Shown: positions 38,100 through 38,807, counted from the first letter of the stretch. The stretch is DNA of 64,000 nt from Escherichia coli (GCF_050320075.1 NZ_CP190018.1); one strand, 5' to 3'. Program-made: numbers and translations. The notes: a model not told the origin generated them from the letters alone.

Positions 38100-38510
38100 C
38101 TACACAACGTCAATAAGGGCATATTCTTCAAAGATAACGTCCATTTCTGGTGAATAGCATCCTTCTGTCTGGAAAAAACGACGGTGTTCATTACGCCAAT
38201 ATTCAAGACTGAGGTCACCTTCACCTTCCTTACGGGCAAGCTCTGCGGTGACATCAGAAAAGCGCAGTAAATGCAGGCCAATCACTCTGATAACACAGAC
38301 AGGCTCACCACGGCTATTTCCTACTATCTTATACTCACCAATCATCGGAAATGCGTTGTCTTCAATACATCCCGCCAGCGAACCACAGGAAGCTGTTTTA
38401 ACACCTGTCGCAATCAACGTTGCGAGGTGATCGGCCAACGCTGCTGAATCGCCAAAAGTACAAAAGGAAGCATGGGGATATTTTTGTGAGATTTTTTCTT
38501 TTATGGTCAT
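38100..38510 (-). CDS. small cytoplasmic protein, possibly ASCH/PUA-like fold
   Basis: ORF 38100..38543; preferred ATG at 38510 (MTIKEKISQKYPHASF); fold assignment is from sequence impression only. Confidence 0.55.
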   Translation of the reverse strand: MTIKEKISQKYPHASFCTFGDSAALADHLATLIATGVKTASCGSLAGCIEDNAFPMIGEYKIVGNSRGEPVCVIRVIGLHLLRFSDVTAELARKEGEGDLSLEYWRNEHRRFFQTEGCYSPEMDVIFEEYALIDVV

Positions 38511-38807
38511 GAGAATATTTTCGCGATTACGGAAAAAAATCACATCTTAATTACTGTTGATAACCATCAGCAAGAGGATCATTGGTTTTTCTATGTTTAA
38601 TCTTTTTTATCCGAAGCCGGTCACATTTATGGCTTGATAAATACCTTTGTTAAAACTCACTTTTGTGTATTTCTCTCAAATAATCCCCTGGAAATTATGC
38701 CGGGAGATTATAAAGTTCAGGATCATTCATTAGCAAACCATTGCTGCCCCACTCCCTGGGGCTTTAAATCTCTTACGATTCACCATTGCAGGCGTTTCAA
38801 ATGCGTA

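Follow-up and report, generated by a model that had tools for sequence, protein, structure and literature searches.

Introduction

The ASCH domain was first predicted to bind RNA, and one of its members, ZmASCH, cuts single-stranded RNA (PMC5615036). In YqfB, an N4-acetylcytidine (ac4C) deacetylase of the Escherichia coli core genome, Thr24 is the nucleophile, Lys21 the base and Glu74 the acid, with Arg26 providing the oxyanion hole; the T24S protein has the activity of the wild type and the R26A protein is inactive (PMC6972931). The arginine corresponding to Arg26 is also essential in TthASCH and TRIP4. The structure 1T62 was used as a template in modelling YqfB. A 2026 preprint on ASCH proteins as erasers of ac4C in tRNA distinguishes the classes GKER, GK[T/S]R and GKE(non-R) within the octapeptide G-x-K-x-x-[E/T/S]-x-R. 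Each of the 19 proteins assayed there was able to strip ac4C from tRNA in vitro, irrespective of its octapeptide type; bacterial ASCH proteins with a substitution at the last octapeptide position were left out of the assays. For the GKER-type proteins deacetylation of ac4C in tRNA has been reported.

The second system of relevance here is Aau (Z0415-Z0419), an accessory ABC importer of L-arabinose that is encoded on O-island 17 of enterohaemorrhagic E. coli (EHEC) and has been described as 'horizontally acquired' (PMC11127945). A reporter carrying the approximately 300 bp upstream of Z0415 was induced by L-arabinose and was wholly dependent on AraC (PMC11127945).

Here we describe a small gene adjacent to the aau genes in a 64,000-nucleotide stretch of E. 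coli DNA, referred to below as the window. The reading that we favour, with a probability of about one in two for the explanation as a whole, is that this is an independent accessory gene for an ASCH-fold protein, which would act as a small hydrolase.

The gene and its surroundings

The frame at 38100..38543 on the minus strand can be read as 147 codons from a GTG or as 136 codons from an ATG at 38510. The gene and the elements upstream of it are:

38100..38510, minus strand: coding sequence of the ASCH-domain protein, 136 aa (open reading frame, Pfam, RefSeq, dN/dS and AlphaFold2)
38511..38543, minus strand: upstream extension of 11 codons from the GTG, outside the conserved protein
38707..38736, minus strand: sigma-70-like promoter candidate, TTGCTA-18 nt-TATAAT, scoring 10/12 in a consensus scan, roughly 197 nt 5' of the ATG
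38746..38762, minus strand: GC hairpin GCCCCA-GGGAG-TGGGGC just past the yahJ stop codon, conserved in all alleles
38808-40190, same strand as the ASCH gene and upstream of it: yahJ, with the twin-arginine motif SRREFL at its N-terminus

Positions 37900-38800 of the window are 100% identical to E. coli strain YZLc1-3, in which RefSeq annotates the 411-nt ATG form as an "ASCH domain-containing protein" (WP_143191209.1). It is this 136-residue form that we take to be the real gene, because only the window allele has the GTG in frame, a T-run longer by 2 nt taking it out of frame in O157 and UTI89, and because the orthologues in other genera, at 136-137 residues, match the ATG form. A recognisable Shine-Dalgarno sequence is absent at both of the window starts (cgcgaaaatattctcATG and taattaagatGTG), much as a first-pass annotation of this DNA had remarked when it found a strong one at neither, and is also absent in the Escherichia alleles of the gene. 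That annotation had described the frame as co-directional with yahJ upstream and a binding-protein gene downstream, and this arrangement is borne out: the binding-protein gene is followed by genes for an ATPase and two permeases and by yahK, all of them on the same strand and 3' of the ASCH gene. In the Sakai genome the ASCH gene was overlooked at first and later added as ECs_5377; in EDL933 it is very probably Z0414, an assignment made from locus-tag order only, this tag coming directly before Z0415.

Both hexamers of the promoter candidate are invariant between the window, O157, UTI89 and Escherichia sp. E2593. The hairpin is not called a terminator because it lacks a T-run, and a terminator scan found none between yahJ, the ASCH gene and the binding-protein gene. 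A search of 37600-38900 with Rfam, at E-values up to 1, detected neither a riboswitch nor a leader or sRNA in the two spacers that flank the gene. The spacer between yahJ and the ASCH gene diverges by 5.4% from that of O157, where dS is about 0.057, and by 9.7% from that of E2593, where dS is 0.22. A structured 5' leader in this spacer was considered and dropped, since the divergence is not convincingly constrained.

Beyond yahJ, at about 40200-48000 of the window, are yahI, yahG, fdrA/yahF, yahE and yahD. In the E2593 locus YahE, YahF and YahG match Pfam AllH, AllF and AllG, respectively, and YahI is a carbamate kinase. Taken with YahJ, an amidohydrolase with a Tat signal, the predicted products suggest a cluster paralogous to the allantoin/oxamate branch, possibly one that is fed from the periplasm and serves the catabolism of N-heterocycles.

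Family and fold

The protein matches the Pfam ASCH profile (PF04266) with 76.8 bits (E 2.5e-21), above the gathering threshold of 21.2, over positions 5-102 of 103; an NCBIfam profile search gave no match. The only solved relatives detected by sequence are 1T62 and 3S9X, with E-values of 7.9e-19 and 3.3e-16 for a single-sequence query and of 7.8e-49 and 3.8e-42 for a profile of 63 family members, the alignment covering residues 3-134. The family comprises 1725 clusters (50% identity) at E <= 1e-3, and relatives are named 'uncharacterized protein YhfF' by JGI. In an AlphaFold2 model computed from the alignment (pLDDT 97.1), the protein forms a PUA-like beta-barrel with flanking helices. When this model was compared with the PDB using Foldseek, 3S9X and 1T62 were the top matches, followed by YqfB (9KYF/9KYH) and then ZmASCH and PH0355, each of the five with a probability of 1.00. 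The match to YqfB has an E-value of approximately 7e-5, a target TM-score of 0.78-0.81 and an rmsd of 2.2 Å. The ASCH/PUA-like impression that the first-pass annotation had gained is therefore confirmed by the Pfam match, the two solved relatives, the model and the Foldseek search, and its frame is evidently real, given the Pfam E-value and the 136-residue orthologues in many Enterobacterales.

End-to-end homology and the signature FGD, GxKTA[TS]C and EGEGDxSLxYW..H assign the protein to the DUF984/YhfF (COG4405) subfamily. The sequence contains neither a signal peptide nor a hydrophobic stretch and the model is compact and globular, in agreement with the cytoplasmic location proposed earlier. 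The product of the gene is thus a cytoplasmic protein made up of one domain, which has the ASCH fold, a PUA-like beta-barrel. Membership of the subfamily is uninformative on activity, as 1T62 and 3S9X are structural-genomics entries without function, and a literature search on YhfF, 1T62, 3S9X, EF3133, COG4405 and DUF984 yielded nothing on function. In ten long relatives the domain is fused to exonuclease-like, LPG-synthase transmembrane, GATase, cupin, PLP-enzyme, GT2 and ferredoxin domains. These fusions are heterogeneous, some perhaps being artefacts of gene calling, and would lean towards small-molecule metabolism at most.

A role in anti-phage defence or in a phage was considered and rejected, as the PADLOC and PHROGs models gave no match.

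Conservation and selection

The dN/dS ratio of the gene is 0.226 against the O157 allele (dS 0.057) and 0.260 against that of Escherichia sp. E2593 (dS 0.22), ratios that mark the gene as intact and under purifying selection. A more divergent allele (L012; 86% amino-acid identity, dN/dS 0.64-0.71, with clustered C-terminal changes) was left out of inference, its assembly being fragmented. Orthologues of 136-137 residues with 50-65% identity are present in Yersinia canariae, Pseudenterobacter, Kosakonia, Erwinia, Edwardsiella, Citrobacter and others.

The part of the sequence specific to the ASCH gene (38150-38510) is present in 2215 of the 5426 complete E. coli genomes (about 41%). At least 80% of it is covered in all but two of these carriers (2213 of 2215), and it is annotated as a coding sequence in each of the 30 carrier rows sampled. 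The wider region, 37900-38800, has some match in 5028 E. coli genomes and a full match in 2210; about half of the genomes have a partial match only, consistent with the K-12 type described below being common. Two of the approximately 2215 matches, for the ASCH and the permease genes alike, are on records labelled as plasmids.

The GC content of the gene is 44.8% and its GC3 is 38%, compared with a GC3 of 69% in yahJ and 57-62% in the transporter genes, and the spacers that flank it have 35-37% GC. Such a composition would suit an AT-rich relic, silenced by H-NS or decaying and now functionless, as would the missing Shine-Dalgarno sequence in the Escherichia alleles and the loss of the gene from more than half of E. 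coli, the K-12-type genomes keeping only a stump. We consider this quite improbable: dN/dS stays at 0.23-0.26 over a dS of up to 0.22, nearly all carriers retain at least 80% of the gene, all of those sampled have it as a coding sequence, the catalytic-site residues are intact and a transcript has been detected.

History of the locus in K-12

The first-pass annotation could not assign the protein to any named K-12 gene, as would be expected given that the gene is deleted there. In K-12 the yahJ-yahK spacer is 376 bp long (NC_000913.3 342508-342883; locus L003, 1509-1884) and nothing is annotated in it. Two remnants are recognisable:

38078..38149, minus strand: 3' end of the ASCH open reading frame (50 nt) and 22 nt downstream, the sole part of it kept in K-12 (blastn, 94.4% over 72 nt)
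31966..32037, minus strand: 3'-terminal 24 codons of the second permease gene of Aau, kept in K-12 and in Escherichia sp. E2593

The K-12 spacer is a mosaic, its other parts being the end of yahJ with 63 nt that follow (window 38836-38745), 21 nt matching a 20-nt insertion of E2593 and a further 63 nt between the ASCH stump and the permease stump. After them comes the 3' end of the second permease gene, 72 nt, which runs into yahK (32037-31864, 99% identity). The Pfam domain BPD_transp_2 reaches residue 305 of the 318 of this permease, so that 11 domain residues fall within the 24 retained codons, and these conserved residues identify the stump as the remnant of a gene and not as spacer.

The junction left by the transporter is common to K-12 and E2593, the latter a cryptic-clade Escherichia with an intact ASCH gene (locus L010, 7679-8700). 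K-12 further lacks about 590 bp, which include the ASCH promoter region, with the promoter candidate described above, and the first 360 nt of the gene; the breakpoints carry CAG microhomology. Both this deletion and the 20-nt indel of E2593 begin right after the hairpin at 38746..38762. The 3' stumps of the ASCH gene and of the last permease gene make K-12 a double-deletion derivative. O-island 17 thus looks, at least in part, like the scar of a deletion in K-12 and not a simple insertion in EHEC, and the stumps qualify the description of Aau as horizontally acquired. The suggestion in the first-pass annotation that the gene may be a remnant therefore applies to K-12, which has only its last 50 nt, and not to the window, whose copy is complete and evolves under purifying selection.

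Relation to the Aau transporter

Two further features lie between the ASCH gene and the transporter genes or within them:

37850..38099, minus strand: spacer between the ASCH gene and the binding-protein gene, 35% GC, holding the published AraC-dependent aau promoter region
36214..37656, plus strand: IS150, 1443 bp (RefSeq of the identical strain; breakpoints against the intact O157 gene)

The IS150 copy has the terminal repeats TGTACTG.../...CAGTACA with CCTG on both flanks and splits the Aau/Z0415 binding-protein gene into 35416-36213 and 37657-37849. The L-arabinose importer is for this reason probably inactive in the window strain, and the adjacent ASCH gene is intact.

The first-pass annotation had suggested, from its position, that the ASCH gene is co-expressed with the transporter, in which case its product could be an accessory component of Aau that acts on the cargo or a derivative of it. 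Their co-inheritance within E. coli is close to perfect. The ASCH gene was found in 2215 and the permease genes in 2219 of the 5426 complete genomes, the order yahJ-ASCH-aau-yahK is seen in O157 TW14359, Sakai and UTI89, and in none of the 5426 is the ASCH gene joined directly to yahK without the transporter. In addition, no terminator is predicted between the ASCH gene and the binding-protein gene, and Z0414, listed as a 'hypothetical protein', was up 3.7-fold (FDR 1.5e-8) with L-arabinose in EHEC RNA-seq (PMC11127945, supplement).

Against this, the same data show Z0415 and Z0417 up 26- and 43-fold, respectively (PMC11127945, supplement), 7-12 times more strongly than Z0414, whose rise resembles those of the unrelated sugar genes malK, xylF and fbp, also listed there. 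The published promoter fragment maps 3' of the ASCH stop codon, so that the AraC-dependent aau promoter, which confers full dependence on AraC and arabinose by itself, does not serve for transcription of the ASCH gene. Within the spacer there is a match to an AraC half-site, TGCCCGTTTTGTCCATA (37982-37998, minus strand, 2 mismatches), some 133 nt before the start of the binding-protein gene, with a weaker second half-site, TAACCAAATTTTTAATA, 4 nt after it that was picked out by eye and is unscored. This pair would fit the published AraC dependence of aau as a weak pointer, the half-site pattern being unenriched in the window (28 observed against 41.8 expected, below chance).

Linkage also fails outside E. 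coli. In Escherichia sp. E2593 the order is yahJ-ASCH-yahK, the transporter being absent, and in a second assembly yahJ-ASCH lies at a contig end. The orthologues in six other genera occupy six unrelated contexts, none of them beside such a transporter. With two more distant relatives, beside ldcA and hslR, the contexts other than that of E2593 come to eight, all unrelated to one another. The nine contexts outside E. coli, which include lysS/HTH, ArsC/lac, MgtE/MCP, Metallophos, a prophage edge, DUF4142/YebC, LdcA and Hsp15, have no neighbour in common, and the gene neighbourhood was rejected as a clue to function. The GC3 of 38% against 57-62% and the disruption of the transporter by IS150 next to an intact ASCH gene likewise speak against a part in Aau, which we regard as improbable. 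Co-expression with the transporter is at best weakly supported, and what stands of the earlier suggestion is the co-inheritance. We conclude that the ASCH gene is an independent transcription unit, possibly with read-through into aau, and not an operon member, and that in E. coli the two are inherited together by physical linkage.

Some single observations were made among these contexts. A gene for a DUF6998 protein is found about 1.5-2.5 kb from the ASCH orthologue in Yersinia canariae and Pseudenterobacter timonensis (L004, 8843-9736, and L006, 4641-5519), on opposite sides, which could reflect chance or a shared mobile neighbourhood. Two single instances come from distant ASCH/YhfF relatives (L019, 4001-5343, and L021, 133-941). 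In one genome such a relative is seemingly in an operon with an ldcA-like LD-carboxypeptidase gene, with a gap of 6 bp, and on a metagenomic contig another overlaps an Hsp15/S4-domain gene (hslR) by 4 bp.

Proposed catalytic positions

Six residues, Leu32, Lys38, Glu95, Gly96, Glu97 and Trp105, are invariant in the 63 diverse relatives, and Gly20, Leu29, Gly36, Ala92, Gly98, Asp99, His109 and Phe130 are nearly so. Position 41 is Thr in 49 of these sequences and Ser in the other 14; position 43 is Ser in 36, Gly in 11 and Arg in none. Of the octapeptide, the protein therefore has Gly36, Lys38 and Ser41, with Gly43 in place of the terminal arginine, and the family is of the type GK[T/S](non-R). 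An alignment to YqfB with hhalign, itself weak (probability 38%, E 3e-4), places TGVKTASCG on AGRKTITIR and ARKEGEG on AEQEN, such that Lys38 corresponds to Lys21, Ser41 to Thr24, Gly43 to Arg26 and Glu95 to Glu74. By this alignment and the similarity of the motifs, the YqfB triad Thr24/Lys21/Glu74 would have its counterpart in Ser41/Lys38/Glu95, and the residue aligned with Arg26 is a glycine.

In the mechanism that these positions suggest, the protein would act alone as a small YqfB-like amidohydrolase, with Lys38 as the base, Ser41 (Thr in most relatives) as the nucleophile and Glu95 as the acid. It would deacylate an N-acylated small molecule, nucleoside or RNA base bound in the pocket of the barrel. 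This pocket would be specific to the family, and the protein carries an invariant set of its own in Glu97, Asp99, Trp105, His109 and Phe19-Gly20-Asp21. Given this set and the missing oxyanion-hole arginine, the substrate is probably not identical to ac4C.

Since YqfB is the closest characterised structure and its Lys, Thr-or-Ser and Glu positions are conserved here, the protein could instead be a second E. coli ac4C deacetylase, acting on the free nucleoside and/or on ac4C34 of tRNA-Met and redundant with YqfB in about 41% of strains. The activity of every ASCH protein tested in the 2026 preprint would be in line with this, as would the overlap of one distant relative with the gene for Hsp15, an S4 RNA-binding protein. 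The preprint's assays, on the other hand, covered octapeptide classes other than GK[T/S] without the terminal arginine, the oxyanion-hole arginine is missing, the identity to YqfB is 16%, and the protein differs from it by an N-terminal extension of about 25 residues and by its extra invariant residues. While ac4C or a compound like it leads the candidate substrates, we think it unlikely to be the true one, and a second ac4C deacetylase is unlikely to the same degree.

A function without amide hydrolysis, as a PUA-like binder of a modified base or RNA or as a ribonuclease resembling ZmASCH, would recall the RNA binding first predicted for the domain and the RNA cleavage by ZmASCH, itself among the Foldseek matches (E 2e-3). 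The invariant aromatic residues Trp105, Phe19 and Tyr/Phe104 could cage a base. The strictly kept Lys, Thr-or-Ser and Glu, coinciding with a proven triad, nevertheless exceed what binding needs. The similarity to ZmASCH (TM-score about 0.5) is far below that to YqfB, and the fusion partners are enzymes of small molecules (GATase, cupin, PLP enzymes and GT2) and not of nucleic acids. A binder or ribonuclease thus seems less likely again than the ac4C deacetylase.

Discussion

The identity of the gene, the fold of its product and its independence from aau are close to certain. That the product is a hydrolase using a Lys38/Ser41/Glu95 triad is a tentative proposal, to which we give slightly less than even odds on the strength of the alignment with YqfB and the conservation of these positions. 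In most respects the gene is an ordinary one: RefSeq already carries an annotation for it, the domain family is a known one with two homologous structures solved, and the architecture is not unusual. Because it is missing from K-12 it has escaped all functional genomics based on that strain, although it is present in reference strains of EHEC and uropathogenic E. coli (UPEC).

The subclass keeps the Lys, Thr-or-Ser and Glu set of YqfB without the arginine. As it was left out of the recent survey of ASCH deacetylases, the E. coli member offers a convenient and easily expressed entry point. DUF984/YhfF might even be a fourth catalytic class of ASCH proteins, with GK[T/S] lacking the terminal arginine, an invariant EGEGD-W-H block and a substrate other than ac4C, though we hold this to be doubtful. 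Were it true, some 41% of strains, with EHEC O157 and UPEC UTI89 among them, would own a deacylase that K-12 has lost, and acylated nucleobases, RNA modifications or an N-acyl compound derived from the gut would be possible targets.

Among the known systems Aau is the nearest in position. It is the immediate downstream neighbour on the same strand, with the same pattern of presence and absence across E. coli, but it has its own promoter, a far stronger induction by arabinose and another base composition, and outside E. coli the two are unlinked. By homology the nearest are 1T62, which is EF3133 of Enterococcus faecalis ('Pfam DUF984'), and 3S9X, an ASCH protein of Lactobacillus crispatus. These are homologous over the full length (query TM-score 0.83-0.86) and share the G-x-K-T/R-A-T/S-C-S/G motif and the EGEGD...W...H block, although they come from Firmicutes and are only 26-29% identical. 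The GKER-type proteins, TthASCH (2DP9), EOLA1, the ASCH domain of TRIP4 and ZmASCH, have the fold and the conserved Gly and Lys of the octapeptide in common with the protein; in contrast to it they carry Glu at the position of its Ser, mostly together with the terminal Arg, and the ZmASCH match is a distant one by the Foldseek values given above. YqfB is the best characterised structural match, likewise a small, single-domain cytoplasmic protein with an ASCH beta-barrel, and the Lys, Thr/Ser and Glu of its catalytic triad align. It differs in having 103 residues against 136, in lacking the helix-strand of the N-terminal extension and the invariant Glu97, Asp99, Trp105 and His109, in carrying Arg26 where the protein has Gly and the family Ser or Gly, and in being encoded by a core gene, whereas the ASCH gene is accessory.
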